Origin: an uncultured Pseudomonadota bacterium | GTDB lineage: Bacteria; Vulcanimicrobiota; Vulcanimicrobiia; Eremiobacterales; Eremiobacteraceae | Assembly (NCBI GenBank): GCA_963736005.1 | Contig: CAVTNB010000003.1 | Coordinates: forward strand, 224,001 to 288,000 | DNA length: 64,000 bases | Direction: 5' to 3' | Part shown: positions 5,220 through 58,314 of the stretch, in pieces | Layout of the letters: every line of letters starts with the position of its first letter | How positions within the stretch are numbered: position 1 is the stretch's first letter | Made by a program: the position numbers and the translations under genes | The notes under the pieces: model-generated | What the model was told of the DNA's origin: nothing | What the model saw: the letters and a program-made list of their open reading frames with translations, nothing else | The model's database searches: none

Positions 5220-6515
5220 ATGGACAGCGCAACCGGTTACTCGGGCGAACCTCGGCCTGAGCTTGCGGATCTCGACCTGTGCACCCGCTGCGGCTTGTGC
5301 GAGCAAGCATGCCCGACGTATCGCGTCTTGCATTTCGAACCCGACTCGCCGCGAGGCCGAGTCTTCCTTATGAAGCAGGTCGCGGAAGGCTCGGCTGCTA
5401 TCGATGCGAACCTCGCCGACCATCTCTATCAGTGTCTGGGATGTCGAGCCTGCGAGACCGTTTGCCCGGCGGGCGTTCCCTTCGGCAAACTGCTCGAGCG
5501 CGGACGTTATCAAATTGAGCAGCAAGGCGAACTCTCGCCGCACAGGAGAGGATGGAGACGTTTCCGCGCGCTCGCATTCGAGCATGTGTTGCCATCCCCG
5601 TGGCTCTTTCAGACGGCGATGCTTCCGGTGAGCGCCTTGCAGCAAGTTCCACCGTTCTTGCGCTTTGTTCAATCCCTGCCGTTGCCGAGACGACTTGCTC
5701 AGCTCGTGCGGATGATTCCCCGAAACCAAACCACAACCGGCTCTGTACGGGGCGATTGGAAAATCGCCCCCGCTATTGGCAAACACCGCGCTCGCGTTGG
5801 GTTGTTCCTTGGTTGCGTCATGCGCTCGCTCTTTGGCAACGTTCACCAAGCGACTGTGCGCGTCTTGACGCATAACGGCTGCGAAGTCGTCATTCCGAAG
5901 GGCCAATGGTGCTGTGGGGCGCTCAACGTCCACGCGGGCGAGCGCGACTTTGCCGCTAAGATGGCAGCGCGAAACGTTCGAGCATTTTCAAACTTGGGGC
6001 TAGACGCCATCATCGTGAACTCAGCTGGTTGCGGGGCGACCATGAAAGAGTACGCAGAATTGTTGCCTGGCGATGGTTCGGCAGAGGACTTTGCCGCAAA
6101 GGTGCGCGATGTCAACGAATTTGTCGGTGAGGTTGCCTTGCGACCGACACTTCATACGCTTCGTGGCCGGGTGACGTATCAGGACGCTTGTCACCTCGCG
6201 CACGGACAGCGAGTGCGCGGGCAACCGCGTGATCTACTTCGGCAGATCCCCGGCCTCAAGTACGTCGAGCTACGCGGTGCCGACGAGTGTTGTGGTGCTG
6301 CCGGCGTCTACAGTGTGACCCACCCCGACCTTGCGTCGTCAATCCTGGAGAGAAAACTTGACGATATCAAAGCTAGCGGGGCAGACATCGTCGCCACGGC
6401 GAATCCGGGGTGCGCTATGCAGCTGCAGGCAGGTCTGCTAAGCTGGAAAGTGGACGCAAGGGTCTGCCACGTGATCGAGCTCGTGGCTGAGTCTTACGCG
6501 GCGGGACATATGTAG
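5220..6515 (+). CDS. glcF: Glycolate oxidase iron-sulfur subunit GlcF
   Basis: Two CxxCxxCxxxCP motifs, CCG domains, YQDACHLAHGQ, TANPGC. Start set at ATG 5220. Confidence 0.92.
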   Translation: MDSATGYSGEPRPELADLDLCTRCGLCEQACPTYRVLHFEPDSPRGRVFLMKQVAEGSAAIDANLADHLYQCLGCRACETVCPAGVPFGKLLERGRYQIEQQGELSPHRRGWRRFRALAFEHVLPSPWLFQTAMLPVSALQQVPPFLRFVQSLPLPRRLAQLVRMIPRNQTTTGSVRGDWKIAPAIGKHRARVGLFLGCVMRSLFGNVHQATVRVLTHNGCEVVIPKGQWCCGALNVHAGERDFAAKMAARNVRAFSNLGLDAIIVNSAGCGATMKEYAELLPGDGSAEDFAAKVRDVNEFVGEVALRPTLHTLRGRVTYQDACHLAHGQRVRGQPRDLLRQIPGLKYVELRGADECCGAAGVYSVTHPDLASSILERKLDDIKASGADIVATANPGCAMQLQAGLLSWKVDARVCHVIELVAESYAAGHM

Positions 6516-6536
6516 CGGGCGATTGGAAAATCGCCT
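6512..6536 (+). repeat. GTAG-REP type A overlapping the glcF stop codon
   Basis: GTAGC-GGGCGATT-GGAA-AATCGCCT; TAG 6513-6515 is the glcF stop. Confidence 0.85.
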
Positions 6537-6551
6537 GATTGGCCCTGGGCA

Positions 6552-6662
6552 GTCCGCCCAAGAATGTAGCGGCGGACCTTTAGGTCCGCCCAAGAATGTA
6601 GCGGCGGACCTTTAGGTCCGCCAAAAGCGTGACTGGGACCGGACCTGAAGGTCCGCTGCTAC
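6552..6662. repeat. GTAG-REP type B cluster: two tandem copies (32-nt period) plus one inverted copy
   Basis: GTAGC-GGCGGACC-TTTA-GGTCCGCC at 6566-6590 and 6598-6622; inverted CGGACC-TGAA-GGTCCG-CTGCTAC at 6640-6662. Confidence 0.88.
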
Positions 6663-40845: not shown

Positions 40846-41009
40846 CGCGTACTACCCTTAACCGGGCCGCTTTTTTTGGGTCGAACAAGCCGGATGGGAG
40901 CTCGCCGCACCTATGGAGCGCGCCGTCTTTCTCATAATAGAATCGGCCAGTTGCGCCCAAGCCGTTAAGGGCCGAGGCGAATCGAACGCTCGTTCGAGGC
41001 ATCGTGCAG

Positions 41010-41034
41010 AGCGGACCTAAAGGTTCGCTGCTAC
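41010..41034 (-). repeat. GTAG-REP type B overlapping the trxB stop codon
   Basis: Minus strand GTAGC-AGCGAACC-TTTA-GGTCCGCT; TAG 41031-41033 is the trxB stop. Confidence 0.85.
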
Positions 41035-41978
41035 GTTATCGCAGCTTCGCGAGCGTGTTCTGCCTCCAAGTACCGTTCGGCTTCCAGTGCCGCGCGGCAC
41101 CCCATGCCGGCCGCCGTCACCGCTTGGCGATAGCGAAAATCGAAGACATCACCGGCAACAAAAACGCCATCCGCCGCCGTGTGCACGCCGTCGCTCGACG
41201 CAATGTAGCCCCGGGCGTCCAGGTCGAGTTGACCCGCGAAAAGCTCAGTGTTCGGCTTATGGCCGATGGCAACGAAGACGGCAGCGCAGGTGCGCTCCGA
41301 CTGCTCGCCGGTCTTGACATTGCGCAAGCGGACGCCGCTCACACGTCCGTCCCCCAGGATGTCTTCAACCGTGGTATCCCAGATGAACCGTATCTTCGGA
41401 TGGTTCATAGCTCGCTGCTGCATGATCTTAGAGGCTCGCAGTTGATCGCGCCTGTGGACGATGGTCACGCTGCGGCCAAAACGCGTGAGAAAAAGCGCCT
41501 CCTCCAATGCAGTGTCACCGCCACCAACCACGAGAATCTCCTTATCTTTAAAGAAGGCCCCGTCGCAAGTGGCACAACTCGATACTCCTCTTCCCCTCAA
41601 TGCGGTCTCGCTGTCTAGGCCCAACCATATGGCCGACGCCCCCGTCGCCACGATCACAGCGTGTGCGCGATATTCGTGCTCGTCCACCCAAACCCGATGC
41701 ACCGTTCCCGAGAAGTCGACGCGCGTGACGTCAACGTTGTGAATGATCGCGCCGAACCGTTCGGCTTGCGCACGAAACTTTTCCATGATCTCGGGACCCA
41801 AAATTCCCTCTGGAAAACCCGGATAGTTTTCGACATCCGTGGTGAGCATCAACTGGCCGCCGTACTGACCGCCCGCAAAAATGAGCGGTTCCAGATTGGC
41901 CCGCGCTGCATACACGCCTGCCGTTAAGCCTGCTGGCCCCGAGCCGATGATAATGAGCTTGTGCACCTCGTCCTTCAT
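41031..41978 (-). CDS. trxB: Thioredoxin-disulfide reductase
   Basis: IIGSGPAG, GGQLMLTTDVENYPGF, SCATCDG, GGGDTA, HRRD, YRQAVTAAG. Confidence 0.96.
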   Translation of the reverse strand: MKDEVHKLIIIGSGPAGLTAGVYAARANLEPLIFAGGQYGGQLMLTTDVENYPGFPEGILGPEIMEKFRAQAERFGAIIHNVDVTRVDFSGTVHRVWVDEHEYRAHAVIVATGASAIWLGLDSETALRGRGVSSCATCDGAFFKDKEILVVGGGDTALEEALFLTRFGRSVTIVHRRDQLRASKIMQQRAMNHPKIRFIWDTTVEDILGDGRVSGVRLRNVKTGEQSERTCAAVFVAIGHKPNTELFAGQLDLDARGYIASSDGVHTAADGVFVAGDVFDFRYRQAVTAAGMGCRAALEAERYLEAEHAREAAIT

Positions 41979-42063
41979 GGACACTATCCATTCTGTCAAT
42001 TTTCTAGAGATGCCCCTGTGCGGTTGCAAGAACGTTACCTCCTTCCTCGAACCACGCAACTCG

Positions 42064-43068
42064 ATGAAAACCTTCCCCTCAAGCCCTGACCTCTTTGACG
42101 CGATCGGCAACACGCCGCTCATCAGGTTGGCCAACCTGTCGGCTGCAATCGATCGAACGATTCTGGGCAAAGCCGAGTTCCTCAATCCAGGTGGATCGGT
42201 AAAAGACCGGGCGGCGAAGTTTATTATCGAGGATGCGGAGCGCGCTGGTCGTCTGCGCCCTGGCGGCACTATCGTTGAAGGCACGGCCGGCAACACCGGC
42301 ATAGCGCTCACCATGCTCGGCAACGCTCGAGGATACAAGTCCATCATCGTCACGCCGGACGATCAATCCGCCGAGAAGATCGAACTGCTTCGCGTCCTTG
42401 GTGCGGATGTGCGGCTCGTGCCGGCCACCCCTTTCACGAATCCCGAGAACTACTATCACGTTGCGCAGCGCACTGCACAGTCTTTACCCGGCGCCGTTTG
42501 GGCCGACCAGTTCAACAATCTTGCGAACGCGCGCGGCCATTACGAGACGACCGGCCCGGAGATCTGGTCTGCCTGCGGCGAGCAGCTCGACGCCTTTGTG
42601 ACGTCAGCGGGAACCGGTGGAACGTTTGCAGGCGTCTCGGTGGCGCTCAAGGAGCGCAAGCCAAAACTCTTGACTGTGGTTGCGGATCCTATGGGTTCCG
42701 CCATGTACTCGTACGTGAAGAACGGCACGCTCGATGTTGAAGGGGACTCAGTTGCCGAAGGTATCGGCATTAAACGCGTGACCGAAAACTTTCGCACCGC
42801 GGTGGCTGACGACGCAATCCGAATCGACGACATCACGATGGTTGAGATGGCCTACTACCTCTTGCGCGAGGAAGGCCTGCTGCTTGGGGGCTCAGCCGCC
42901 TTGAACGTCGCCGCGGCAGCACGCATCGCCCTGCGGCTTCCACCCAAAAGCGTGGTTGCCACCGTCTTGTGCGATGGCGGCAGCCGTTATCTTTCTCGCT
43001 TGTACAACGCGCAATGGCTTGCGGAGAACGGACTCGTACCGCAGCAGCGCGGGTTGACTTTCCTCTAA
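42064..43068 (+). CDS. cysK: Cysteine synthase (PLP)
   Basis: IGNTPL, KAEFLNPGGSVKDR, EGTAGNTGI, GTGGT, EGIG, LCDGGSRY. Confidence 0.88.
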   Translation: MKTFPSSPDLFDAIGNTPLIRLANLSAAIDRTILGKAEFLNPGGSVKDRAAKFIIEDAERAGRLRPGGTIVEGTAGNTGIALTMLGNARGYKSIIVTPDDQSAEKIELLRVLGADVRLVPATPFTNPENYYHVAQRTAQSLPGAVWADQFNNLANARGHYETTGPEIWSACGEQLDAFVTSAGTGGTFAGVSVALKERKPKLLTVVADPMGSAMYSYVKNGTLDVEGDSVAEGIGIKRVTENFRTAVADDAIRIDDITMVEMAYYLLREEGLLLGGSAALNVAAAARIALRLPPKSVVATVLCDGGSRYLSRLYNAQWLAENGLVPQQRGLTFL

Positions 43069-43120
43069 GACCGAAGCGGCGCAAACGTAGGTTTTGCAGA
43101 GGCTGCCGCCAAACCGAACC

Positions 43121-43138
43121 TTGGGATAAATTTCACAA
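43121..43138. promoter_or_regulatory. Putative Rex operator upstream of nuoA
   Basis: TTGGGAT-AAAT-TTCACAA matches 12/14 positions of TTGTGAA-N4-TTCACAA, 44 nt before the nuoA ATG. Confidence 0.55.
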
Positions 43139-43182
43139 AGTCTCTGTCTACCGGCTCGCTGATCGCCCGCCCGAGGATACGG

Positions 43183-43542
43183 ATGCAACCTTCGCCCTGG
43201 ACCACCATTGCCGTTTTTTTCATCGTGGCGCTCGTTGTCGCAGGCGTGATTTCGATCGTTCCGGGCATTTTTACCCGGAAGCGCCCCACCAAAGAAAAAC
43301 TTGAAGCGTATGAATGCGGCGTGCCGCCGACTTCGGAACTCACCGGTCGTTTCCCAATTCGCTTTTATCTCGTGGCCATGCTGTTTGTGATCTTCGACGT
43401 TGAAACGGCCTCGTTTTATCCATGGGCGGTCAAGCTCAAGTCGCTAGGATTTTTTGGTTTCACCGAGATGTTGACGTTCATCATCGTGCTGGGCATCGGA
43501 TACGCCTATGTCTGGAAGAAGGGCGGATTCTCATGGCGCTAG
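43183..43542 (+). CDS. nuoA: NADH-quinone oxidoreductase subunit A
   Basis: [22 protein letters not shown]. Confidence 0.96.
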
Positions 43543-44015
43543 ACGAAAATCAGCCCTTCGTTGTCACCAAGCTAGACGATTTTCTCAAGTGGGCACAGTC
43601 GTCAGCCATCTGGCCGATGACCATGGGGCTCGCATGCTGCGCGATCGAGATGATGAGCATGGTGTCACCCAAGTATGACACCGCCCGTTTCGGTGCAGAA
43701 GTCTTTCGTTCGTCGCCGCGTCAAGCCGACCTGATGATCGTGTCCGGCCGCGTTTCAAACAAGATGGCGCCGGTGCTGCGTCAGCTCTACGAGCAGATGC
43801 CCGATCCAAAGTGGGTCATCTCAATGGGCGCTTGCGCTTCCAGCGGTGGTATCTTTGACAACTATGCCATCACGCCGGCCGACACGTTCCTGCCCATTGA
43901 CATCTACGTCCCAGGTTGCCCGCCGAGCCCGGACGCGCTCATTTACGCGCTCATGCAACTGCGGCGCGAGATTCGCGCGGGCAGCAAGGCCAAGGTGCTC
44001 TCATCGAATGCCTGA
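43533..44015 (+). CDS. nuoB: NADH-quinone oxidoreductase subunit B
   Basis: [25 protein letters not shown]. Confidence 0.96.
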
Positions 44016-44580
44016 GAGCATCAAACCCCATCCCGAGCGCGCGGCGCTTGCACCCCTGATCGAAGCACTCACGCAAGCTGCCGGTGAACATCTTCTCGAA
44101 GCTGTGGCCGCGGAGGACATGGACGAGATCGCGTTGCGCCCGGGTGGCTTGCTGGCCGTTATCGATCGTCTGCGAGCACACGGGTTCAACCATCTGCTCG
44201 ATATCGGGGGCACCGACCACCATCCGCTGACCCCGCGATATGAGATCTCCTATCATTTAATAGCGATACCACTCGGTGACGACCTTCGCAATCCCGGCAG
44301 GCTGATGAACCTCCCGCGCATTCGACTGCGGGTCTTTCCGCAGGATCTCGATCCGGTCGTTCCATCGCTTGCGGGCATTTGGCCCAGCGCGAACTGGCCC
44401 GAGCGGGAGATCTTCGATCTGTTTGGCGTTCGATTTGAAGGGCATCCGGATCTCCGTCGGCTGCTGAATCCGGATGATTTTGTGGGCTATCCGCTGCGCA
44501 AAGACTTTCCGTTGCGCGGCCTCGAGCGGCGCTTTGTCCCCGGCGGGCGCCTGGGCGCAGTTCCTCCGGTGAAAGAATGA
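44008..44580 (+). CDS. nuoC: NADH-quinone oxidoreductase subunit C
   Basis: [27 protein letters not shown]. Confidence 0.95.
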
Positions 44581-45809
44581 GCTCGCTCGACCTGGCCGCG
44601 TTCCGCGACAATCCCGACATCGGGCTCGAACGCGGAGACGAGCGCGACACGCTCGTGCTTTCCATGGGCCCGCAACATCCAAGCACTCACGGCGTACTTC
44701 GCGTCATGCTGCGGCTTGACGGAGAAACAGTTGTCACCGCTGAGCCCGAGATCGGATTTCTGCATACGGGCATCGAAAAGCAAGCCGAGAACCTGTTTTG
44801 GCAGCAGGCTATCACGGTCGTCGACCGCGCCGACTATCTCGCGCCGCTCTCCAACAGCTTGTGTTACGTACTCGCCGCCGAGCAGCTCTTGGGGATTGAC
44901 AACATCCCGCCGCGCGCCCGCGTGCTACGCGTCATGTTCACAGAGCTCACGCGCCTCGCTAGTCACCTCGTATGGCTTGGCACGCACTGTTTGGATCTCG
45001 GTGCGCAATCAATCTTCTTCTACGCGTTCGAGATGCGCGAGCGCATTCTCTCGATCATGGAATTCGTCACTGGTGCTCGCATGCACCAATCGTGGTTTCG
45101 CATCGGCGGCCTCGCCATCGACGTTCCAGTCGGCTTTCTCGACACTATCGATGACTTCATCGCGCGCTTTCCGGAGCGTTTGGCCGACATGCGAGCCATT
45201 GTTGAAAAGAACGTGATCATTGTCGACCGGCTGGTCGGCATCGGCAAGGTAACGCAGCAAGAGGCGATCGACTGGGGGCTCACCGGTCCGCCGCTGCGGG
45301 CAACGGGCATCGCCTATGACATCCGTCGCGCTCGTCCGTACTGCGATTACGACACCTACGATTTTGAGGTGCCCACGCAGACTGCCGGCGATTGTTATGC
45401 GCGCTTCGTCGTTCGGCTCAACGAGATGCACGAGTCGTGGCGCATCATCAAGCAGGCGCGCGAGCGTTTCCCGGGAGGACCTGTCGTCATCGACGACCGC
45501 AAAATCGTGCCACCGCCAAAAACCGAAATCCAGCATTCGATGGAAGCGCTCATCCATCACTTCAAACTCGTTTCGTCCGGCTTCAACGTGCCGGAGGGTC
45601 ACGTGTACCAGGCTGTGGAGAGCCCGCGCGGCGAGATGGGCATGTATGTGACGAGCGCCGGAGGCAACAAGCCATGGCGCGTGCGCTGGCGCCCACCGTC
45701 CTTTTACCATACGCAGGCACTCAAACGCCTTGCGCCGGGCAATCTCATCGCAGACGTCGTCGCGATCATCGGCAGCCTGGACCCCGTCTTTGGAGACGTC
45801 GATCGATGA
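44577..45809 (+). CDS. nuoD: NADH-quinone oxidoreductase subunit D
   Basis: [32 protein letters not shown]. Confidence 0.96.
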
Positions 45810-46300
45810 CGCCCGAACGAGAACGCCGGGCGGCGGAGCTTGCCGCAAAGTATCCGCAAACCCAATCGGCGCTGATCCCATTCCTGCAGTTCTGCCAGCA
45901 GCAGGATGGCTTCGTGACCGAGCAGGCGATTTTGGACGCCGCCGAAATGGCCGGCATCACCCCGAGCGAAGTCGAGTCGATTGCGACTTTTTATAGCTTG
46001 CTCTTCAAAGAGCCCGCGGGCAAACACGTCATCCAAATCTGCCGCACGCTGTCCTGCATGCTCCGCGGCGCGGACGAGTTGCAACAGCACGCGCGCCGGC
46101 GACTCGGCCTGGCCAATGGCGAAACAAGTTCTGACGGCAAGTTCACCTACGAGGAAGTCGAGTGTCTGGCAGCCTGCGATCGCGCACCGTGTCTCCAACA
46201 CAATCTTGAGTTCCACTACGACGTGACGCCGGCGGATTTCGACCGCTTGCTCGAAACGTGGCGAGCGCAGGACCCGGTCACGAGCTTGCCGGCGGAATAA
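45806..46300 (+). CDS. nuoE: NADH-quinone oxidoreductase subunit E
   Basis: ATFY, CRTLSC, ECLAACDRAP. Confidence 0.95.
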   Translation: MTPERERRAAELAAKYPQTQSALIPFLQFCQQQDGFVTEQAILDAAEMAGITPSEVESIATFYSLLFKEPAGKHVIQICRTLSCMLRGADELQQHARRRLGLANGETSSDGKFTYEEVECLAACDRAPCLQHNLEFHYDVTPADFDRLLETWRAQDPVTSLPAE

Positions 46301-46303
46301 ACG

Positions 46304-47596
46304 ATGGCACAATTCGAACGCGTTCTCACCCGCGGGATCGGTGAGCTGGATCTCACCGATATCGAAAGCTACAAGCGGCTAGGCGGTTTCGCGAGCTTGG
46401 AAAAGACGCTGCGTCAGATGACGCCGGCGGCGGTCGTGGGCGAGGTAAGCGCATCGAACCTTCGTGGCCGAGGCGGAGCGGGCTTCCCCACGGGCAAGAA
46501 GTGGAGTTTTCTGCCAAACGACGGCCGGCCGCGTTACCTCGTGTGCAACTGCGATGAAGCAGAACCCGGTACGTTCAAAGACCACATGCTCTTAGAGTTC
46601 TCACCGTTTCAGATCATCGAGGGTTTGCTTATCTCTGCCTACGCCATTGGCGCCGCCAAAATTTTTATGTATATCCGCGGCGAGTTTCTTGAGGGCTACC
46701 GCATCTTCAAACGCGCGGTCGAACAGGCAGCGCTGCAAGGCTATCTCGGCCGGCGGATTTTGGGAACCGATTTCTCGATGGACATAACCCTGCACCGCGG
46801 TGCGGGCGCGTACATCTGCGGCGAAGAAACTGCTATGCTCGAATCGCTCGAAGGCAAACGGGGCGAGCCGCGGCTCAAGCCCCCATTTCCGGCCAACGCG
46901 GGCCTGTACGACATGCCCACTGTGGTCAACAACGTGGAAACGGTTTGCTGCGTGCCACACATCATCGAGCGCGGAGCGAAGTGGTTCGCGTCCATAGGAC
47001 CGGAAAAATGTCCAGGACCAAAGATCATCAGCGTGAGCGGCCATGTCCGCAAGCCCGGCAACTACGAAGTACCTATGGGGATTCCAGCGCGCGAACTCAT
47101 CGAAGAGTATGCCGGCGGTCTTTTCCCTGGCCGCCAGCTCAAGGCCATCCAACCAGGGGGCGGATCCTCGGCGGCCATCTTCGAGGAGGACCTCGATACC
47201 GGCATCGACTTCGACTCGCTAGCGGCCAAGAAAACCATGTTGGGCTCGGGCGGTTTTGTCGTTATGGATGACACCACGTGCATGGTGCGCGCGTCACAAA
47301 CTTTGGTGCGCTTTTTCGAGCACGAATCGTGCGGCCAATGTACGCCGTGCCGGGAAGGCGGACAATGGGTGGCGAGGATGGTCACGCGACTGGAGGCCGG
47401 TGAGGGTTCGCAAAACGACTTGCGCGTGCTCAACACGATCAATGATACGATCACCGGCACGAATCTCTGCCCGCTGGGCGATTCGATCATGCCCTTTTTG
47501 TCGTCCGTTCTACGCCGATTTCCCGAAGAATTTGCAGCCCACGTGCGGCTTGCCGGCTGTCCGCTTCGGGCAACGGCCGTGGAAGCTGCAAGCTGA
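46304..47596 (+). CDS. nuoF: NADH-quinone oxidoreductase subunit F
   Basis: LRGRGGAGFPTG.KW, DEAEPGTFKD, GAGAYICGEET, ESCGQCTPCREG. Confidence 0.96.
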   Translation: MAQFERVLTRGIGELDLTDIESYKRLGGFASLEKTLRQMTPAAVVGEVSASNLRGRGGAGFPTGKKWSFLPNDGRPRYLVCNCDEAEPGTFKDHMLLEFSPFQIIEGLLISAYAIGAAKIFMYIRGEFLEGYRIFKRAVEQAALQGYLGRRILGTDFSMDITLHRGAGAYICGEETAMLESLEGKRGEPRLKPPFPANAGLYDMPTVVNNVETVCCVPHIIERGAKWFASIGPEKCPGPKIISVSGHVRKPGNYEVPMGIPARELIEEYAGGLFPGRQLKAIQPGGGSSAAIFEEDLDTGIDFDSLAAKKTMLGSGGFVVMDDTTCMVRASQTLVRFFEHESCGQCTPCREGGQWVARMVTRLEAGEGSQNDLRVLNTINDTITGTNLCPLGDSIMPFLSSVLRRFPEEFAAHVRLAGCPLRATAVEAAS

Positions 47597-47599
47597 CCC

Positions 47600-50020
47600 A
47601 TGAGCAAACAAACACCGCGGCGCCTGGTCAACCTGATCATCGATGGCAATCCGCTTTCCGTGCCCGAAGGAACCCTCGTCGTTGAAGCCGCTAAGCTGCT
47701 CGGCACGCATGTGCCCGTGTATTGCTATCACCCGAAGATGGACCCCGCCGGATTGTGCCGCATTTGTCTCGTTGAAATCGAGAAGATGCCAAAGCTGCAG
47801 ATTGCGTGCAATACGCAGGTGGCTGAGGGCATGGTCGTGCACACCACGTCTGCGCGCGTGGCGGAAGGTCGCCGCGGCGTGCTCGAGTTCTTGCTCCTCA
47901 ATCATCCGCTCGACTGCCCCATCTGCGACAAGGGCGGCGAGTGCGATCTTCAGGATTTCACGATGAGTTATGGCCCCGGCGCCAGCCGTCTGACCGAGCC
48001 GAAACTGCACAAACCCAAGGTGGTCGATCTCGGTCCGACGATCGTGCTCGATGAGGAGCGCTGCATTCTGTGCCGGCGCTGTACGCGCTTTGACGATGAG
48101 ATCGCGCAAGAGCGCAACTTGGTTGTCGTCGAGCGCGGGCAGCGCTCGCTGATTGGCACCGCACGCGGTGATGATTACGCTTCGTACTTCTCAGGCAATA
48201 CAACCGAGATTTGTCCGGTTGGCGCGTTGACCAGCAAAGCATATCGCTTCCGCTCGCGCCCTTGGGACCTCAGCCATGCAGACTCCGTCTGCACCCAGTG
48301 CTCGGTTGGGTGCAACTATCGTATCGACTCACGCTTCGGGCGCATCATGCGCACGTTCACCCGGGAGAATACTGCCATCGACGATGGCTGGATTTGCGAC
48401 CGGGGCCGCTACACGTTTAACTATTTGTATGAGCCCACGCGACTGCGCCAGCCGCTGCTGCGGCGCGATGGAGAACTCAAAGCCGCGACGTTTGATGAGG
48501 CAATTGCGCTCACTGCCGAAAAGTTGGCAGCAGCAGCTCGCCACGGGCGCGTTGGCATCATCGGCGGCGGTCGTTTGTCGGATGAAGAGGCCTTTGCGCT
48601 GCAGCGATTTGCTCGAGAGGTTTTGGGCACGAACAATATCGATTACCGAACCTCGCTGCAGAAGTTTGCGTCGCCACCGCGCTTTGGAGCGCGCCTCGAA
48701 GACCTTGACGATGCATCGTTGATCTTGGTCTTCGGGGCGATCACATCCGAGCAGGCGCCTATCCTTGACTTGCGTTTGCGGCGCGCGGTCGCGCGGCATC
48801 ATGCAAAGCTCCTGTTCGTCGGCCCCTACAAACCTGATTTCGAGGTGCCGTGCCGCTACGTTGAGTACGCGCCTGGCGCCATCGGAACATTGATGGAGAA
48901 GTTAGCCGACGTCGTGCATCACGGCAAGGAAGAATCAGGCGAAGGCTTCGTTGCCGAGATCGCAACGGAGCTGGCCGGCGCTGAGAAGATCATCGCGATC
49001 CACAATGGCCGTGACCCCGACGCAATTATCTCGCTCGATCGTCTCATGGAGCGGCTGCACCAGTACGATCATCCGGTTGGCATCCTGGTCGTCGGCGCTG
49101 TGGGCAACGCGCGCGGCGCCGAAGCGGCCGGTTGCGTGCCCAACCTCGGTCCGGGCTACGCGCCCATCGAGCCGCCGGGAATGACCACCGGTGAAATGCT
49201 CGTGGCGGCTGCGGATGGGCAGCTCGATGCGCTCTTCATTGCGGGAGCGAATCCTGCGCTCACGTATCCCGATGGTGCGCTTGCTCGCCGTGCGTTGAGC
49301 CGCGTCGGGTTCCTTGCCGTGGCGGAGCAAGTGATGACCGAAACGGCGTCGCATGCAGATGCGGTGTTCGCGGCCGCATCGTTTGCCGAGAAGAGCGGCC
49401 ACGTGACCAATCTTGAGGGAACGCAGCAAGCCTTCGCCCAGGCGGTCGAGCCGCCAGTTCATGTGGCTAGCGATGCGCAAATCCTGGCGGCGCTCGCACG
49501 CACAATGGGAAAAGCGACGGATCTTCCTGATGACGTCGGCGCGCTTTTCGTACAACTGAACAGCGCGCTCGCGGCGGCGCGTGCGCGCAGCCCCAAGGAT
49601 TCACTGCCTCGCCCGAAAGTCGAAGCCCCTCGTAGCAGCGGACCTTCAGGTCCGCTCCAGGCGGAGAGCGCACCTCAAGGTGCGCTGCTACAGTTAACCA
49701 TCATTCCCATTCCAAAACTGTATGCCGGCGGCGGTCCGTCTGCACACGACCCCGGAATGGCCGCAATGCGCCCTCGGCCTTTTGCGATCTTCTCCCCAGA
49801 TGACGCAGCGCGCCTTGGCTTCGCACCAGGCGACATCGTGCGACTCACCGGTGCCGCGGGCGACATTGACGTGGAAGCAAAAGTCGGACCGCAAGCACCC
49901 GCTGGCGTGGCGCTCGTGCTCGCCGATATGCCTGAAGCGCCGGTCAACCGATTGCTTGATGCTACCGGTTTCGGCACTGCCTCTGCCAGCGTCGTCGCCA
50001 CGTCGGAGATGCGCGCATGA
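47600..50020 (+). CDS. nuoG: NADH-quinone oxidoreductase subunit G
   Basis: CYH, CRICLVE, HPLDCPICDKGGEC.LQD, CILCRRC, ICPVGAL, N7 motif CTQCSVGC...ICDRGR. Confidence 0.96.
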   Translation: MSKQTPRRLVNLIIDGNPLSVPEGTLVVEAAKLLGTHVPVYCYHPKMDPAGLCRICLVEIEKMPKLQIACNTQVAEGMVVHTTSARVAEGRRGVLEFLLLNHPLDCPICDKGGECDLQDFTMSYGPGASRLTEPKLHKPKVVDLGPTIVLDEERCILCRRCTRFDDEIAQERNLVVVERGQRSLIGTARGDDYASYFSGNTTEICPVGALTSKAYRFRSRPWDLSHADSVCTQCSVGCNYRIDSRFGRIMRTFTRENTAIDDGWICDRGRYTFNYLYEPTRLRQPLLRRDGELKAATFDEAIALTAEKLAAAARHGRVGIIGGGRLSDEEAFALQRFAREVLGTNNIDYRTSLQKFASPPRFGARLEDLDDASLILVFGAITSEQAPILDLRLRRAVARHHAKLLFVGPYKPDFEVPCRYVEYAPGAIGTLMEKLADVVHHGKEESGEGFVAEIATELAGAEKIIAIHNGRDPDAIISLDRLMERLHQYDHPVGILVVGAVGNARGAEAAGCVPNLGPGYAPIEPPGMTTGEMLVAAADGQLDALFIAGANPALTYPDGALARRALSRVGFLAVAEQVMTETASHADAVFAAASFAEKSGHVTNLEGTQQAFAQAVEPPVHVASDAQILAALARTMGKATDLPDDVGALFVQLNSALAAARARSPKDSLPRPKVEAPRSSGPSGPLQAESAPQGALLQLTIIPIPKLYAGGGPSAHDPGMAAMRPRPFAIFSPDDAARLGFAPGDIVRLTGAAGDIDVEAKVGPQAPAGVALVLADMPEAPVNRLLDATGFGTASASVVATSEMRA
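49632..49691. repeat. Inverted REP type B doublet (REPIN-like), in frame inside nuoG
   Basis: GTAGC-AGCGGACC-TTCA-GGTCCGCT, 10-nt spacer, AGCGCACC-TCAA-GGTGCGCT-GCTAC; 60 nt in total. Confidence 0.9.
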
Positions 50021-51024
50021 CGCACGTGCCTTTGTGGGTGCTGACCGTCGCCATCAAATCCGGCGTGCTTATCTTCATCGTGGTCACGTCGTTCGCGTAT
50101 CTGATGTTGACCGAACGCAAGATGCTTGGCTGGTTCCAGCTGCGCCTCGGGCCCACGTGGTGCGGCCCGTGGGGTCTCATGCAGCCGGCGGCGGATGCGG
50201 TCAAGTTGGTTTTCAAAGAAGACCTCACTCCGGGCGGTGCGGATCGCTTCATTTATAAAGTCGCGCCGGCAATCGCCGTGCTGACGGCGCTGCTTGCGTA
50301 CGCGGTCATTCCTTTTGGTTGGTATCCAAACGGCGACCCGATCGCGATCGCTTCGCCCAATGTCGGCATCCTCTATTTGCTCGCGGTAGCCTCGGTAGGC
50401 GTTTACGGCATCGCGCTCGGCGGCTGGGCTTCGCAATCAAAATGGTCGCTGTTGGGCGCTATTCGCTCGACAGCACAGATGATCTCGTACGAGCTTGCCA
50501 TGGGCTTGGCTATCGTGCCTGTCGTCATGCTCGCGGGAACGACAAGCCTGGGCGGCATCGTTGCGGCACAATCCGCACACCACCTTTGGTACGCCATCCC
50601 GCTGTTCATACCGTTCCTCATCTTTGGCGTCACCGCCATGGCAGAAACCAATCGCGCTCCGTTCGATTTGCCCGAAGCCGAAACAGAACTCGTCGCGGGA
50701 TTTCACACCGAGTATTCGAGCTTGCGGTTCGGCACGTTCTTCGTCGCCGAGTACGTCAACATGATCACCGTGTGCTCCATCCGGACCCTGCTCTTTTTGG
50801 GTGGCGGGGACGGACCGTTGGTGTCGCAGCTGCCCTATCTCTCCGTCGTCTGGTTCGTGGTCAAAGTGGGCCTGTTGCTGTTTATGATGATCTGGTGGCG
50901 CGCGACGCTCCCGCGTCTGCGCTACGACCGTCTCATGGCATTCGGCTGGAAGTTTTTGCTGCCGACGGCGGTGGCTAATCTCTTGATCGTCGCGGGCATC
51001 GTCGCGGCGATCGGCAATCGTTGA
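50017..51024 (+). CDS. nuoH: NADH-quinone oxidoreductase subunit H
   Basis: ERK, Q.RLGP, QPAADAVKL..KE, AQMISYE, NRAPFDLPEAETELVAG, PRLRYD. Confidence 0.96.
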   Translation: MTHVPLWVLTVAIKSGVLIFIVVTSFAYLMLTERKMLGWFQLRLGPTWCGPWGLMQPAADAVKLVFKEDLTPGGADRFIYKVAPAIAVLTALLAYAVIPFGWYPNGDPIAIASPNVGILYLLAVASVGVYGIALGGWASQSKWSLLGAIRSTAQMISYELAMGLAIVPVVMLAGTTSLGGIVAAQSAHHLWYAIPLFIPFLIFGVTAMAETNRAPFDLPEAETELVAGFHTEYSSLRFGTFFVAEYVNMITVCSIRTLLFLGGGDGPLVSQLPYLSVVWFVVKVGLLLFMMIWWRATLPRLRYDRLMAFGWKFLLPTAVANLLIVAGIVAAIGNR

Positions 51025-51536
51025 GGCGTGACGTGAAGTATTTCTTGCAAGCCGCCAGCGGCCTCGTGATTGGGATGATGACCACGCTGAAGTATCTCTT
51101 CAAGAAGAAAGCGACCATCGACTATCCGAACAAGCCATTTCGCCATGCCGAGCGTTTCCGCGGCGTCCACGAACTACGCAAATATGATGACGGCTTAGAA
51201 CGCTGCATCGGCTGCGAGTTGTGCGCGGTGGCGTGTCCGGCAAACGCGATCACGGTCATTGGAGCGGAAAACGATCCACAACATCCGGTCTCTCCCGGCG
51301 AGCGTTACGGATACCGCTACGAGATCGACATGCTGCGCTGCATCTTCTGCGGCTGGTGCGAGGAAGCGTGCCCAACTGACGCAATCGTGCTCACGCCGCG
51401 CTTTGACATCGCAGATTTTACGAGGGACCGCCTCGTTTACGGCAAGGATAAGTTGCTCGTGAAAGACCCATTCACGCAGCACATGGCCAACACAGAGTCC
51501 TCAATGGACACAGACCCAGGCGTGAGCGTACCGTGA
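51021..51536 (+). CDS. nuoI: NADH-quinone oxidoreductase subunit I
   Basis: RFRG, CIGCELCAVACP, CIFCGWCEEACP. Confidence 0.96.
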   Translation: MRRDVKYFLQAASGLVIGMMTTLKYLFKKKATIDYPNKPFRHAERFRGVHELRKYDDGLERCIGCELCAVACPANAITVIGAENDPQHPVSPGERYGYRYEIDMLRCIFCGWCEEACPTDAIVLTPRFDIADFTRDRLVYGKDKLLVKDPFTQHMANTESSMDTDPGVSVP

Positions 51537-52039
51537 TCGCGCTTTTTTGGATCTGTGCTGTTGTCCTTGTCGTCACCGGCATCGCTGTGATTTCGAGCAA
51601 GCATCCGGTGCATTCGGTCATCGCTCTCATCGTCAACTTCAGCGCTCTGGCCGTGCTGTTCTTGACGCTCAATGCTGAGTTCTTGGCCATGATTCAAATC
51701 ATCATTTACGCTGGCGCCATCTTGGTGCTCTTCTTGTTTGTCATCGCGCTTTTGACCATCGGGAATCAGGCCATCGAACTCGCTCCCGGCAGGTTGAGCT
51801 TTCAGGCGGTGCCGTCAATTGTGGCCGGGATTGCGGCGCTTGCTCTCCTGTTCGCCGGCGTTCGGGGGGCGCAGGTTGGGGCGTATCAACCGACGCCGAG
51901 CGACTTCGGACTCGTCGCGACATTCGGCACCGCGCTTCTGACGACGCACCTGTTTGCCTTCGAAGTGACGGGGTTCGTGCTGCTCATCGCGGTCATCGGC
52001 GTTGTGGTCATGGCTGGTAGAAAGGAGGTTCGCTTCTAG
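51533..52039 (+). CDS. nuoJ: NADH-quinone oxidoreductase subunit J
   Basis: PVHS, AEFLA.IQIIIYAGAILVLFLFV, FE. Confidence 0.95.
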   Translation: MIALFWICAVVLVVTGIAVISSKHPVHSVIALIVNFSALAVLFLTLNAEFLAMIQIIIYAGAILVLFLFVIALLTIGNQAIELAPGRLSFQAVPSIVAGIAALALLFAGVRGAQVGAYQPTPSDFGLVATFGTALLTTHLFAFEVTGFVLLIAVIGVVVMAGRKEVRF

Positions 52040-52354
52040 GTGGGCATCGCGCAGGTTCCACTTGCGGACTATCTGACGGTTTCTGCCGCGATCTTTGTCA
52101 TCGGTGTCATCGGCTTTTTGCTGCGGCGCAACCCGATCATCATGCTCATGGCCATCGAACTTATGTGGAACGCCGGCAATCTTGCTTTCGCCGCGTTTGC
52201 GCGGCATTTCATCGACATGTCAGGCCAGGTGTTCGTTTTTATCGTCATCACCGTCGCGGCGGCGGAGGCGGCGATTGCGCTCGCCATCGTGGTCATGGTA
52301 TTCCGGCGCCGACCTGACGCCGACGTTGATGAGATTTCCGTGATGAGGGGTTGA
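52040..52354 (+). CDS. nuoK: NADH-quinone oxidoreductase subunit K
   Basis: RRN, IELM.NA, GQVF, VAAAEAAI.LA. Confidence 0.95.
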   Translation: MGIAQVPLADYLTVSAAIFVIGVIGFLLRRNPIIMLMAIELMWNAGNLAFAAFARHFIDMSGQVFVFIVITVAAAEAAIALAIVVMVFRRRPDADVDEISVMRG

Positions 52355-54297
52355 TGGAAGGATACCTTCGCACCGCACCCTTCACCATTTTGTTCTTGCC
52401 GCTGTTCGGTATGATGGTCATCGCGCTCGTTGGCCCGCGCGTGCATCGAATCGGTGCCGCGGTTATCGGAAACCTCTCGATTCTCGGGGCGTTCGTTTTG
52501 ACGGCCGTGCTCGCATGGACCGTTTGGCGGCTGCCACCTGATACACAAGTGCTCACCGTGAAGTATCCACCCGCGTGGGCCGCGCACCCGCAGTTTTGGG
52601 CTCATATTCCACCGCTGACCATTTCGTTCGAGCTGCGCATTGATTCTCTAGCCCTCGTGTGGATGCTCATCATCACGGGCGTCGGTTTTCTCATTCATCT
52701 GTATTCGGTTGGTTACATGGCAGACGCAAAGGGGTATCGCACCTTCTTTGCCTACATGAACCTGTTCGTTTTTACCATGCTGCTGCTCGTGATGGCGGGC
52801 AATTTTTTGTGGCTGCTCGTCGGCTGGGGCGGCGTCGGGTTGGCCTCGTACCTGCTGATCGGGTTTGATGCCGATCGCCCAGCAGCGGTCCTCGCCGCCC
52901 GCAAAGCGCTCATCATGAACGTCATCGGCGACGTCGGCATCATGATCGCTCTCTTTCTTCTCTATGCGCATTTCGGCAGTTTATCGTACAAGGAAGTCTT
53001 CGGCAACGTGACAAGCGCAAGTCAAAGCGCGCTCAACTGGATCGGGATCTGGCTGCTCTTAGGCGCGGTCGCTAAATCGGCCCAACTGCCGCTGCAAACT
53101 TGGCTGCCAGATGCAATGGAGGGCCCCACGCCGGTCAGCGCCTTGATCCACGCCGCGACGATGGTCACGGCCGGCGTCTATTTAATAGCGCGCGCGCATC
53201 CCATTTACGATCATGCGCCGATTGCCGCCACGACGGTGGCGGTGATCGGTTGCGCCACTGCCTTCTTTGCAGCCACCATCGGCACGGTGCAGTACGATAT
53301 CAAACGCGTGCTGGCGTACTCGACGATGAGCCAGATCGGCTATATGGTGCTCGCGGTTGGCGTGGGCGCCTATGCGGCCGGAACCTTTCATTTCATCACC
53401 CACGCGTTTTTCAAGGCGCTGCTTTTTATGGCCGCCGGCATCATCATTCACAACCTTGGCGGCGAGCAAGATATCCGAAAGATGGGAGGCCTGGCTCGAC
53501 GCATGCCGCTTGCTTTCTGGACCTTCCTTATCGGCACGCTTGCCATCTCTGGCATCTATCCGTTCGCCGGTTTCTTTTCTAAAGATGCCATCTTCGATCA
53601 ACTCCTCGCTTCGCATCACCCCGTCCTCTGGGCGTTCGCGGTTGCGACTGCGCTCTTAACAGCGTATTACATGCTCCGGTTGCTCTTCTTGACGTTTTTT
53701 ACCGGGGAGTACCGCGGCGAACACGAGCCTCACGCTGACCGGTCCTTTACGATGATGATCCCGACAGTTATTCTCGCGTTGCTCTCCGTTGTCGGGGGTT
53801 GGCTTGTCTTGCCTGGACACGACGCCATTTCAAGCACGCTCGCCCCTGCATTCGCCGATAGTGGAAAGCTTCCGCGCATGGGCCAGATCAATTGGTTCGT
53901 CACTTCCATTGCCACGCTGGTGGCGGTCCTGGGCTTTGGCGCCGCATATGTCCTGTACCAACGAGGGGCGGAGATTCGCGTGAGACTCAGCACGGCGTTG
54001 CGTCCGTTGCGCGCGCTGTTGTTCAATGCCTATTATATCGACACGATCTATCACTGGCTGTTTGAGGTGCCGGCCTTGACGCTTGCTTCGGACGTGGCAC
54101 GCTACATCGACCCTGAAGGCGTAGGGGGTGTCACCGCCGGCGTTGCCCGCGCCGCAACCGGAGTTGGCGATGCCATGCGCGGTTGGGAGACTGGCTATCT
54201 GCGCCGCTACGGGCTCAGCATGGTCATCGGTATGGTGCTCGTGCTTGCTTTCTATTTGTATCTCGCGCACGGCGGCATCGCAGCGGGAATGAAGTGA
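52354..54297 (+). CDS. nuoL: NADH-quinone oxidoreductase subunit L
   Basis: IHLYSVGYM, KSAQLPL.TWLPDAMEGPTPVSALIHAATMVTAG, THAFFKALLF. Confidence 0.96.
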   Translation: MEGYLRTAPFTILFLPLFGMMVIALVGPRVHRIGAAVIGNLSILGAFVLTAVLAWTVWRLPPDTQVLTVKYPPAWAAHPQFWAHIPPLTISFELRIDSLALVWMLIITGVGFLIHLYSVGYMADAKGYRTFFAYMNLFVFTMLLLVMAGNFLWLLVGWGGVGLASYLLIGFDADRPAAVLAARKALIMNVIGDVGIMIALFLLYAHFGSLSYKEVFGNVTSASQSALNWIGIWLLLGAVAKSAQLPLQTWLPDAMEGPTPVSALIHAATMVTAGVYLIARAHPIYDHAPIAATTVAVIGCATAFFAATIGTVQYDIKRVLAYSTMSQIGYMVLAVGVGAYAAGTFHFITHAFFKALLFMAAGIIIHNLGGEQDIRKMGGLARRMPLAFWTFLIGTLAISGIYPFAGFFSKDAIFDQLLASHHPVLWAFAVATALLTAYYMLRLLFLTFFTGEYRGEHEPHADRSFTMMIPTVILALLSVVGGWLVLPGHDAISSTLAPAFADSGKLPRMGQINWFVTSIATLVAVLGFGAAYVLYQRGAEIRVRLSTALRPLRALLFNAYYIDTIYHWLFEVPALTLASDVARYIDPEGVGGVTAGVARAATGVGDAMRGWETGYLRRYGLSMVIGMVLVLAFYLYLAHGGIAAGMK

Positions 54298-54298
54298 C

Positions 54299-55843
54299 AT
54301 GCTGATCGATACCGTCATTTTCTTGCCCTTGGCCACTGCGCTTGTCCTCATGCTTGTGCCTCGCCAAGCCACCGCAGCGCAAAAAGGCATCGCGTTTGCG
54401 GGCGCACTCGCAACATTTTTCTTGTCGCTTACTTTTCTCACGCTCGGCGTCGGGACTGCAGCCGATCAGTCGGTGCCATGGATTTCGGGCACGTGGGTCG
54501 CCGCCTACCACGTGCGCGTCGACGCGCTCCGCCTGTTCTTCGTGCTTCTCACCACGCTCGTCGGCGTTGCGTGCGTGTGGGCGGCATTTTCGTATGCCCA
54601 GCAGCCCCGGCTGCGCGGCTATCTGTGTCTGATCTTGGCGTTTGAAACCACGCTACTCGGATTGTTCACCGCCGCAGATTTGCTGCTCTTTTACATCTAT
54701 TGGGACTTGATGCTCATTCCCGTCTTCTTGCTCCTTACCGGCTTTTCTGGCACGCAAGCGGCGCGACGAGCAGCCTGGAGCTACCTCATTTACAATGGCG
54801 CGGGCGGGCTCGTGCTGTTGCTTGGGATCATTGCGCTGGTCACGCAAACGCACACCTTCGAACTGGGTGGGAGCGCGCTAAACCTGAGCCCTCAATTGGA
54901 GTGGTGGATCTTCGCAGCCTTTGCGATTGCGTTCCTCATCAAGACACCGGCCTTCCCCTTCCACAGCTGGATGCCGCCGACGTACACGCACGCACCCCCG
55001 CCAGTGGTTGCGATGGTGTCAGGCGTGCAAAGCAAAGCAGGGCTTTTCGGCCTGCTCGCCTTCGCGCTTCCGCTTTTTCCGCACGCAGCCCAAGCCTGGG
55101 CGCCACTGCTGCTCGTGCTCGGGGTAGCGAGCATCTTGTACGGGGCGCTTGCCGCCATGGGCGAACAAGACGCAAAGACGCTGGTAGCGTTCTCGTCGCT
55201 GTCGCATCTTGGTCTCGTGTGGCTCGCGCTCTTCGCGTTTGACATCACCTCGATTTCGGCTGGTATTTTGATGATCGTCAGCCACGGCTTGATCGCCGCC
55301 GCACTCTTTCTGTTGCTTGGCTTCATTGAAGAACGGGTCGGCACGCGCGATCTGGCGCGATTCGGAGGGATGAGCCACCGAGCGCCGCGTTTGGCCGTGA
55401 TGATGCTCATCGCCGCAATGGCTGCGCTGGGATTGCCCGGGCTTTCCGGCTTTGCGGGTGAGTTTCTGATCCTCATCGGAAGTTGGCAGACTCAGCCTCT
55501 CGCTACAAGTTTTGCCCTCATTTCAGTCGTGCTTGCGTGCGTGTACATGCTCAAGCTTTTTCAAAGCACCATGCACGGTCCCGAGCGAGTGCCGCACCCC
55601 GGTGCCGCGCTCGAACTGCGCGCGAGGGAAGCGTGGCTCGTGGCGCCGCTGCTCGCCGCGATCGTTTTCCTGGGCGTGTGGCCTGGCTGGCTCAACGACC
55701 GAACCCCCAATGTCGTCGCGCGCATCCATTCGCGAGTGAATGTAGCAGCGGACCTTCAGGTCCGCTTGGCGCGAATTCATTTAGTTCCCAATGTCGTCGC
55801 GCGAATTTATTCGCGCGCGCACGACGTAGGACACGAACTATGA
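54299..55843 (+). CDS. nuoM: NADH-quinone oxidoreductase subunit M (REP-derived C-terminal tail)
   Basis: DLLLFYIYW, IKTPAFPFHSW, FSSLSHLG, SHGL, GLPGLSGFAGEF. Confidence 0.95.
   Translation: MLIDTVIFLPLATALVLMLVPRQATAAQKGIAFAGALATFFLSLTFLTLGVGTAADQSVPWISGTWVAAYHVRVDALRLFFVLLTTLVGVACVWAAFSYAQQPRLRGYLCLILAFETTLLGLFTAADLLLFYIYWDLMLIPVFLLLTGFSGTQAARRAAWSYLIYNGAGGLVLLLGIIALVTQTHTFELGGSALNLSPQLEWWIFAAFAIAFLIKTPAFPFHSWMPPTYTHAPPPVVAMVSGVQSKAGLFGLLAFALPLFPHAAQAWAPLLLVLGVASILYGALAAMGEQDAKTLVAFSSLSHLGLVWLALFAFDITSISAGILMIVSHGLIAAALFLLLGFIEERVGTRDLARFGGMSHRAPRLAVMMLIAAMAALGLPGLSGFAGEFLILIGSWQTQPLATSFALISVVLACVYMLKLFQSTMHGPERVPHPGAALELRAREAWLVAPLLAAIVFLGVWPGWLNDRTPNVVARIHSRVNVAADLQVRLARIHLVPNVVARIYSRAHDVGHEL
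55706..55817 (+). repeat. REP cluster (C-B-partial C-C) in frame in the nuoM 3' end
   Basis: CCCAATGTCGTCGCGCG at 55706 and 55787 (81-nt period); GTAGCAGCGGACCTTCAGGTCCGCT at 55742-55766; CGCGCGAATTTATTCGCGCG at 55798-55817. Confidence 0.9.
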
Positions 55844-57267: not shown

Positions 57268-57323
57268 GGCGGATAATTCGTCGTCGCTTTCGCTGGCTGT
57301 TTTGCCGCTCATGAGGTCACGTT

Positions 57324-57701
57324 TTGAGACTGCGTCCGCTGGTTGCCTTGCTCGCCATGCTGGCAATCGGCGCGTGTTCATCGCTCGTCAGGCACGCTGC
57401 GCAAGAGCTTGCACCGACTCCGCTCCCCATTGCAACCGGGGACTACCCGATGCTCGGCCATGCTGCAGATTTCTCGTGGATTGCCGGCAGGCTGGAGCGC
57501 AGTCTTTCCTGTACGTATCTGCGTTTTGGTTCGCCAAAGCGTGCGCCATGGGGCGGACGGATCGCGCTCGGGGCTACGCCAGATCAAGTCGGCCGATTAC
57601 CCGATGGCGACACCGTCGTAGTGAAAGGCGACCTCACACCCATCGCGTACGGCACGTGCGGGTCACCATCGTATCTTATGCGCTCGATCGAGGAGCATTA
57701 G
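57324..57701 (+). CDS. Hypothetical lipoprotein
   Basis: Lipobox IGAC after a hydrophobic signal. Confidence 0.6.
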   Translation: MRLRPLVALLAMLAIGACSSLVRHAAQELAPTPLPIATGDYPMLGHAADFSWIAGRLERSLSCTYLRFGSPKRAPWGGRIALGATPDQVGRLPDGDTVVVKGDLTPIAYGTCGSPSYLMRSIEEH

Positions 57702-57709
57702 AGAGGCCC

Positions 57710-58156
57710 TTACGTGCTGGTCGGGGCTGGCACGTTGCGGTGATGGTGGTGCGTGCCTGTCATCGTCCCTGACGAGTTGCTCATCGAGTTTGTCATGCTC
57801 CCACCGTTGCCACCGCCGGCGAGGTGATAGCCGTGTGCGTTCGCCGCTGCCATGCACATATATTGACCGTTCTTGGTGCGCCCGTACCAAGGATCGCCTT
57901 GCTCGTGGTACACATGGGTATTGAGATTGACCCACACAATTTGACTCTTGCAATCAAGATTTGCGGGAATGGGCGCCGCTTGCCCCGCAGCTCCGTTCAT
58001 GGCTTGGCCAGCTGCGTTCGCAGCTTGGCCAGTCGCCGTCGCGGTGCTGTTGGCTGCGTTTTGTCCGCTGCCTCCACCACCGCAACCGCTCGCCACCACT
58101 CCCACACAGAGGAGCACGACGGTGAGAAGCGGAGCGGAAAACTTGCGCTGAAACAT
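57710..58156 (-). CDS. Lipoprotein with small VWVN...YH...WYG.TK.G.YMC domain
   Basis: Lipobox ASGC, Ala/Gly/Asn linker, compact aromatic-rich domain, His-rich tail. Confidence 0.7.
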   Translation of the reverse strand: MFQRKFSAPLLTVVLLCVGVVASGCGGGGSGQNAANSTATATGQAANAAGQAMNGAAGQAAPIPANLDCKSQIVWVNLNTHVYHEQGDPWYGRTKNGQYMCMAAANAHGYHLAGGGNGGSMTNSMSNSSGTMTGTHHHHRNVPAPTST

Positions 58157-58314
58157 CGAGTTTCCTTTCCATGGGGGATGAAACGAAAAGTCTTCGCGAT
58201 AGGGAATCGCGAGTGCTCGGTGGTTTGCGCCGGCAACGTCAATCCCCTGGCCAGCGACCGAGGTGCAAACGCCCTCGGGGAAAAATACGAGCGGACTAAA
58301 AGGAGGGTTCCTTA

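Follow-up and report, generated by a model that had tools for sequence, protein, structure and literature searches.

A translated REP doublet in a NuoG linker that probably replaced an older REP of another family in an Eremiobacterota lineage

Introduction

How does an inverted pair of GTAG-headed REPs come to be translated inside the complex I subunit NuoG, and what stood at the site before it? The locus that raises this question lies in the window, by which we mean the whole stretch of 64,000 nucleotides analysed here, from genome G000. As a mere case of a repeat translated in a protein it would be ordinary, and how REPs spread is described as still unresolved in the available part of PMC8266576. 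The alleles found at this site in close relatives, the RAYT genes of the same genome and the REPs at orthologous sites elsewhere are considered together here.

The nuoG doublet and its reading frame

The features at the locus are as follows.

47600..50020, plus strand: nuoG, 806 aa, identified by Pfam, phmmer and Foldseek
49632..49656, plus strand: left arm, a family-A GTAG REP with a TTCA loop
49657..49666, plus strand: 10-nt spacer of the doublet
49667..49691, minus strand: right arm, a REP of subtype A' with a TTGA loop

NuoG was also identified by its sequence similarity to the mycobacterial subunit 8e9g_G and by its fold. The 60-nt inverted doublet (49632-49691) is translated in frame as codons 678-698, which fall between the domains Molybdopterin (281-634) and Molydop_binding (721-787); the sequence, coordinates and frame given in an earlier note on this DNA were thus borne out. 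In the element a short palindrome follows a 5' GTAG tetranucleotide, the arrangement that defines GTAG-type REPs, and its two inverted REPs and spacer are able to form a hairpin, as in the structural definition of a REPIN. Within the window the family-A 25-mer is found 7 times when up to 3 mismatches are allowed, compared with 0 in 100 shuffles. The whole genome has 23 exact copies and, with up to 4 mismatches allowed, 191 matches, which shows the motif to be repeated throughout the genome (197 family-A copies in all). A' REPs with a TTGA loop account for 2 of these 197 copies, one of them being the nuoG right arm. An Rfam search of window 40000-60000 returned no match.

The doublet is also present in a second assembly, from run X2, in which a 151-nt short-read contig reproduces window 49553-49703 with 0 differences. 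This contig covers the whole doublet with 79 nt of left and 12 nt of right flank, at a depth of about 3 and with the right junction bridged by fewer than 31 nt, and X2 could be the source sample. Runs X3-X6 gave no contig over the nuoG site with flank.

Alleles of the NuoG linker among relatives

When the linker is measured from the conserved RP to the residue preceding PxLYxGG, the window NuoG has the longest of 60 measured (34 aa), while 49 of the 59 anchored homologues have 27 aa (range 23-30; 9 of 68 homologues were not anchored and fall outside this count). In both closest relatives, L038 and G002, the linker is 24 aa long. L038, which is 97.6% identical to the window at the nucleotide level over 14.6 kb, carries a perfect single family-C REP at the nuoG site, and G002, at approximately 90% identity, carries a family-C variant at the same position and with the same length of 24 aa. 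Both family-C REPs have the orientation of the window left arm, which takes their position. The doublet therefore represents a net change of +7 aa relative to the family norm and +10 aa relative to the closest relatives, and the clean indel of about 20 aa that had been anticipated gave way in the homologue alignment to this smaller gain at a site where relatives have a C REP. A classical IS or MITE insertion was rejected on similar grounds, namely an occupied site, a net +30 nt for a 60-nt element and a duplication of at most 2 nt.

Because L038 and G002 agree in position and length, the C allele is ancestral by parsimony and the doublet recent. A contig from run X7 is identical to the window over 49693-49801 and then continues into the C allele, which in X7 rests on one 151-nt contig at depth 2, and run X1, possibly the same data as L038, has an allele 30 nt shorter at this site. 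It is likely that the nuoG site is polymorphic among very close strains. Among 27 linkers compared with the REP families, a clear match was found solely in G000, L038 and G002; G003 matched marginally (p 0.04) and G001 did not match. A whole genus with REP-derived linkers was considered and set aside, as only these 3 of the 27 match clearly. In a quick tree from which linker and tail columns had been removed, the motif DQVDATH was kept in 0 of 9 rows of the window clade versus 14 of 14 of the sister clade; a link between its loss and REPs in the window clade is only suggestive, given that other clades vary without REPs.

Elsewhere in NuoG, other relatives have C-termini extended by A-like REP peptides (L003:3902-3926 in G004, and proteins P0009, P0024 and P0025), and the C-terminus is a second REP landing place within nuoG.

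REP families and RAYT genes of the genome

Word counts in G000 revealed three GTAG REP families, with 197 copies of A, 276 of B and 258 of C (731 in total, at up to 4 mismatches; reversed-pattern controls gave 0). These REPs group into 489 clusters, 323 of which are single REPs. The genome contains three Y1_Tnp genes, corresponding to one intact RAYT per REP family; each is flanked solely by REPs of its own family, and all three proteins score above the cut-off of the RAYT model NF047646. The REP-flanked RAYT sought for family A was found here:

G000:C3:137816-138274, outside the window: RAYT-A gene (NF047646 104.6 bits, cut-off 80)

Eight A copies lie on one side of this gene and 2 inverted A copies on the other. 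All three RAYT proteins have HIH or HLH, the Y and NPVRA, and in the RAYT-C protein the Gly of the RAYT motif NP(L/V)(R/K)xG, taken from the available part of PMC2817692, is Asn. Judged by sequence, the nuoG doublet is a GTAG REP pair of this RAYT system, whose role in cleavage and transfer is predicted.

The stem of the right arm had been read earlier as keeping its hairpin by a compensatory G:C to C:G swap. It belongs instead to the genome-wide subtype A', of which 12 of 15 copies lie in inverted doublets, compared with 16 of the 182 other A copies. Inverted A doublets number 14 among the 197 A copies and have spacers of 7-36 nt; family A thus lacks the over-represented doublets with conserved spacing by which REPINs are defined. 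The REPs are mostly extragenic, with 22 or 26 internal coding clusters of approximately 490. The family-A pattern was found in 6 of the 41 genomes searched, from 2 genera, and is lineage-restricted, while family C was found in 4 of 25 genomes from one genus.

Several further observations concern the genome rather than the nuoG site. A family-A REP with a GAAG head instead of GTAG occurs in 20 copies in G013 and 2 copies in G004, and in G013 two inverted GAAG-headed copies flank a RAYT homologue; this changed guide tetranucleotide could show how a RAYT reads the head. The variant rests on G013 together with G004. The unpublished genomes G008, G011 and G013 supply rows of the linker and pattern tables, and the main conclusions are independent of them. 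Between G000:C1:400000 and 1400000, far more REPs lie on the minus strand (218) than on the plus strand (58), a strong bias to which GC skew shows no clear parallel. In window 36003-36189, C and B REPs alternate in a tandem array of three units that repeats every 63 nt. Near the RAYT-A locus, an ORF that we take from its motif to be topoisomerase I-like (L033:12-863, minus strand) ends after 283 codons, which suggests a frameshift or an assembly indel.

Family swaps at orthologous sites

The genome-wide comparison used G002 only (2.757 of ~2.94 Mb, indel-rich, 83% complete), with alignments to G000 longer than 1 kb amounting to 2.31 Mb at 89.5% identity. Of the 489 clusters in G000, 430 could be mapped to G002, where 152 were the same, 114 shared a family, 102 were absent and 62 were of a different family. 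The absent class is an overcount, because a loose re-examination of its 102 sites found no REP at 62, the same family at 33 and another family at 7. As a control, a REP was present in G002 at 22 of 774 mapped intergenic sites that are REP-free in G000, a set that includes gaps possibly unsuited to REPs. Orientation was kept in 48 of the 50 uniform swaps (12 mixed ones were set aside), significantly more than the 0.62 agreement of neighbouring clusters would give (p 2e-8).

The family differences mostly agree with the RAYTs that each of the two genomes retains. One RAYT was found in G002, of C type; its RAYT-A locus is empty, its RAYT-B region gave no match, and its family A and B copies are more decayed. 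In 49 of the 62 swaps, A and/or B in G000 faces C in G002, and 12 run against RAYT content, the G002 side being B in 10 (one with A too) and A in 2. With two genomes compared, most swaps could have run in either direction.

The junctions are often ragged, the GTAG-side offset being zero in 6 of 33 single-to-single swaps, and the 5' junction at nuoG is itself inexact, with 4 extra nt. Since junctions are seldom exact, insertion beside an old REP followed by deletion fits just as well as direct overwriting does. Mixed-family pairs, possible intermediates, make up 67 tandem and 8 tail-to-tail inverted cases among 242 adjacent pairs, and C/A mixed pairs are present in both G000 and G002. In addition, a REP remnant lies within 35 nt of 81 of the 323 single REPs, compared with 128 of 2000 controls. 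Such mixed neighbours and remnants suggest that new REPs arrive at old REPs.

REP sites are likely overwritten by RAYTs, with frame-preserving results tolerated in loops. At nuoG, the explanation that we consider probable is that an in-frame family-A pair in a length-variable NuoG linker replaced an older C REP by way of RAYT-A and was kept neutrally. A RAYT, as an HUH single-strand nuclease, would act at or beside resident GTAG hairpins and write its own REP there; this enzymatic step is drawn from the HUH chemistry of other TnpA-REP proteins (PMC8266576, in the part available) and from the correlation between RAYTs and REPs. An inverted A' arm would have been placed approximately 10 nt downstream of the resident C hairpin, trapping host sequence as the spacer, and the C arm would have been overwritten by A, in either order. 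Selection would remove frameshifting outcomes and the REP peptide would be neutral, so that the doublet probably survived only because its net change of 30 nt keeps the frame and the loop tolerates it.

The spacer and a sister doublet

The sequence CAGGCG is common to the nuoG spacer and to the host DNA that immediately follows the C REP on its 3' side in L038 and X7, which suggests that the nuoG doublet was assembled in place. The same six nucleotides also occur in the spacer of a sister doublet at G000:C1:1357529, which has the same TTCA arm and A'-TTGA arm as the nuoG doublet and whose spacer opens with the same 8 nt that immediately follow the C REP on its 3' side in X7. The spacers of the other 12 of the 14 A doublets are unrelated, and because 6 nt are shared by 3 of 91 spacer pairs, the spacer match by itself is weak. 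The sister doublet thus weakens the spacer as sole proof of assembly in place, and this use of it was given up; its spacer match would also allow import of the doublet as a unit. The two doublets are probably related by copying, and nuoG is slightly favoured as the source because the host flank is old there. For movement as one unit, one sister pair suggests one copying event, while the other 12 doublets look unrelated. An extended form of the explanation is possible and is put forward tentatively: a tolerant protein loop in which a REP has landed would become a slot rewritten by any RAYT present in the cell, two separate single-REP events would build a doublet on the spot with captured host DNA as its spacer, and the nuoG doublet would then have given rise to a copy at a second locus.

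The opposite course, in which a ready-made REPIN was copied from C1:1357529 and short homology (GTAG on one side, CAGGCGTG on the other) guided it onto the C REP, appears unlikely, even though it would account for several of these facts: the TTCA arm is common to both doublets, which also have the only 2 A'-TTGA arms among 197 A copies, the C1 spacer matches the X7 flank better (8 nt) than the nuoG spacer does, and the frequency of this 8-mer is 2.2e-5 per position. The flank is old host sequence at nuoG, being homologous in G002, L038 and X7, whereas the C1 site is without the doublet in G002, which favours nuoG as the source; moreover, the other 12 doublets have unrelated spacers of 7-36 nt, and the spacer match by itself is weak.

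The translated peptide and the hairpin

An AlphaFold model of NuoG, built from 56 sequences with a mean pLDDT of 69.8, shows helix 646-661 and strand 698-704 connected by a coil that contains the REP peptide, where pLDDT is below 50 at residues 679-694. This result fits a flexible linker and falls short of proving disorder, as pLDDT is also low at 96-276 and the REP residues are present in the query alone. The natural linker range of 23-34 aa is better evidence of tolerance than the model.

If the peptide or the mRNA hairpin were adaptive, tuning NuoG folding or the expression of the nuo operon under selection, the persistence of a REP at the nuoG site in G002, L038 and G000 would be expected, and so might the single long RNA hairpin into which the doublet folds (-39.2 kcal/mol, a value with no shuffle control) and the preference for sense-strand REPs between co-directional genes (120 versus 55). 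We regard this explanation as improbable: the peptides are unrelated between alleles at the site, G001, G003 and 22 further linkers have no clear REP match, and persistence is also predicted by re-use of the site by RAYTs without any benefit. Replacement followed by neutral retention remains the preferred reading.

Other REPs in coding sequences

The window contains further REPs that touch reading frames.

5745..5769, plus strand: family-C REP, in frame in a CCG-domain Fe-S protein (ORF 4929-6515)
6512..6662, unstranded: intergenic cluster of a C REP, two tandem A and one inverted A
41010..41034, minus strand: family-A copy whose GTAG is the stop codon of ORF 41031-42353
55712..55815, plus strand: NuoM C-terminal tail, a REP cluster of a decayed B, an A and a B, in that order

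The left arm had been said to match copies in nuoM, at 6566-6662 and at 41010. The nuoM copy (55742-55766) is indeed identical to it and the match at 6566-6662 holds, but the copy at 41010 is not purely intergenic, given its stop codon. Similarly, the family-C REP of the 6512-6662 cluster provides the TAG stop (6513-6515) of ORF 4929-6515. The NuoM tail after LGVWP is 57 aa long versus 32 aa in L043; its cluster is common to L038, and nuoM still ends in a stop that overlaps with the start of nuoN. A 1-nt indel in G002, perhaps an assembly error, places a stop ahead of the cluster.

Across the genome, a home-made gene model yielded 22 internal coding clusters under one filter and 26 under another, with at least one (window 5745) being missed. 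G002 counterparts were mapped for 23 of the 26; the length difference is a multiple of 3 at 20 of these sites and is not at the other 3. Family swaps in coding sequence number three (nuoG, mfd and rsmB), all in frame (+30, -6 and -21 nt, respectively). Host proteins were identified from 200-codon pieces of 18 sites in the list of 22, with seven further sites, found solely in the list of 26, standing outside this identification. Among the hosts are ValRS, LeuRS, a GluRS-type ligase, DnaE2, SMC, a DEAD-type helicase, TrmFO, ThiL and a 2-oxoacid dehydrogenase. Complex I is represented among the 26 clusters, which derive from one filter, by nuoG alone. The proposal that REPs add peptides to core respiratory proteins therefore stands insofar as REPs are translated in several core proteins, while its respiratory emphasis does not (1 of 26 in complex I).

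Individual sites illustrate the range of alleles. In Mfd (G000:C1:1451289-1451358; L198), an A doublet in G000 corresponds to two tandem B REPs in G002, both alleles being in frame; RsmB (G000:C3:118226; L204) has A in G000 and half an A followed by C in G002; and TrmFO (G000:C3:134322; L205) has a C REP in opposite orientations in the two genomes within the same loop. At G000:C3:83522-85039, a B REP appears to fuse two reading frames into a 506-codon ORF, and G002 has a stop there.

A clean insertion of about 20 residues into a REP-free gene, as part of a bias towards respiratory proteins, is highly improbable in view of these data. Three facts could be read in its favour: none of the other linkers among the 60 measured is as long as that of nuoG, the tail of NuoM is likewise derived from REPs, and the NuoG proteins P0009 and P0024 terminate in similar peptides. 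Against it, the net gain is only 7 or 10 aa, the site already held another REP, and coding REPs are spread across unrelated proteins. Finally, a repeat misjoined into nuoG during assembly has hardly any probability, for although the assembly appears to hold some frameshifts (the truncated topA-like ORF) and relatives carry the other allele, the frame is intact, the spacer is unique and a separate short-read contig equals 49553-49703 exactly.

Relation to known systems and significance

The translation of such elements is not novel, in-frame GTAG doublets and REPs in subunits of complex I having been published already. The available passages of PMC3733652 (Di Nocera et al. 2013, on GTAG/CGTC REPs) describe GTAG-headed hairpins in frame in ORFs, more than half of the inserts being dimers or groups of 20-30 aa, with targets that include DnaE2, helicases, tRNA synthetases and complex I subunits (O. 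terrae Oter_2467; R. conorii NuoC and NuoL). They also report different REPs at approximately the same recB site in two Xanthomonas species and GTAG supplying stop codons. No NuoG case was present in the searched rows of its supplement, and its available passages, on another phylum, give no before-and-after alleles at base level. Beyond the recB remark, no literature on in-frame family swaps was found, in a search that covered few subscription journals.

Overwriting of extragenic sites is likewise known. In 42 P. chlororaphis genomes, REPORTH found that 13 of 20 always-occupied positions have mixed REPIN types following RAYT content, and its authors suggest that RAYTs modify or replace REPINs (bioRxiv 10.1101/2024.10.14.618302, in the part available). 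As described there, REPORTH addresses extragenic spaces and only doublets longer than 50 bp, with flanks offset by 250 bp, whereas here the REPs are mostly single or tandem, orientation and junctions are resolved and swaps are found inside reading frames.

The present system resembles REPtrons, as portrayed in the available parts of PMC2817692 (Nunvar 2010), PMC3686654 (Nunvar 2013), PMC8266576 (Corneloup 2021) and PMC6006769 (Quentin 2018), in its single-copy HUH Y1 protein of ~150 aa with inward-facing GTAG REPs, in the occurrence of several per genome with REP abundance following RAYT presence, and in short near-perfect stems as in group 3. It differs in its host, an Eremiobacterota lineage according to the names of the homologues, for which no literature on RAYTs or REPs was found, and in being known here from sequence alone. 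REPINs, as defined by Bertels and Rainey in 2011 (PMC3116915, in part), have a fixed spacing that is not seen here; in Pseudomonas fluorescens SBW25 doublets dominate, whereas here 323 of 489 clusters consist of one REP, tandem pairs are commoner than inverted pairs and the spacers of the A doublets range over 7-36 nt. Rickettsia palindromic elements are similar in placing repeat DNA in frame inside conserved proteins, but in the available parts of PMC3733652 and PMC3184786 the RPE-1 types are ~105-146 bp long, and the short types have a CGTC head and lack a known transposase. Such an element was ruled out at nuoG, where the units are 25-nt GTAG REPs and a RAYT is present.

What the literature searched did not yield is base-resolved, orientation-preserving swapping of REP families in reading frames, with alleles in near-identical strains. 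The nuoG locus offers defined substrate and product alleles from such strains, and one genome provides three short RAYTs with three cognate REPs; together, these make the overwriting idea proposed for extragenic REPINs directly testable in vitro. Replacement of REPs within loops would be a route for core proteins to gain hypervariable loops without net growth. If the tentative extended form of the explanation is true, loop slots would provide essential proteins with peptide alleles that differ within a single species, and these alleles would be a before-and-after record of a REP dissemination reaction that targets GTAG hairpins of any family and preserves the strand, rather than striking at random.
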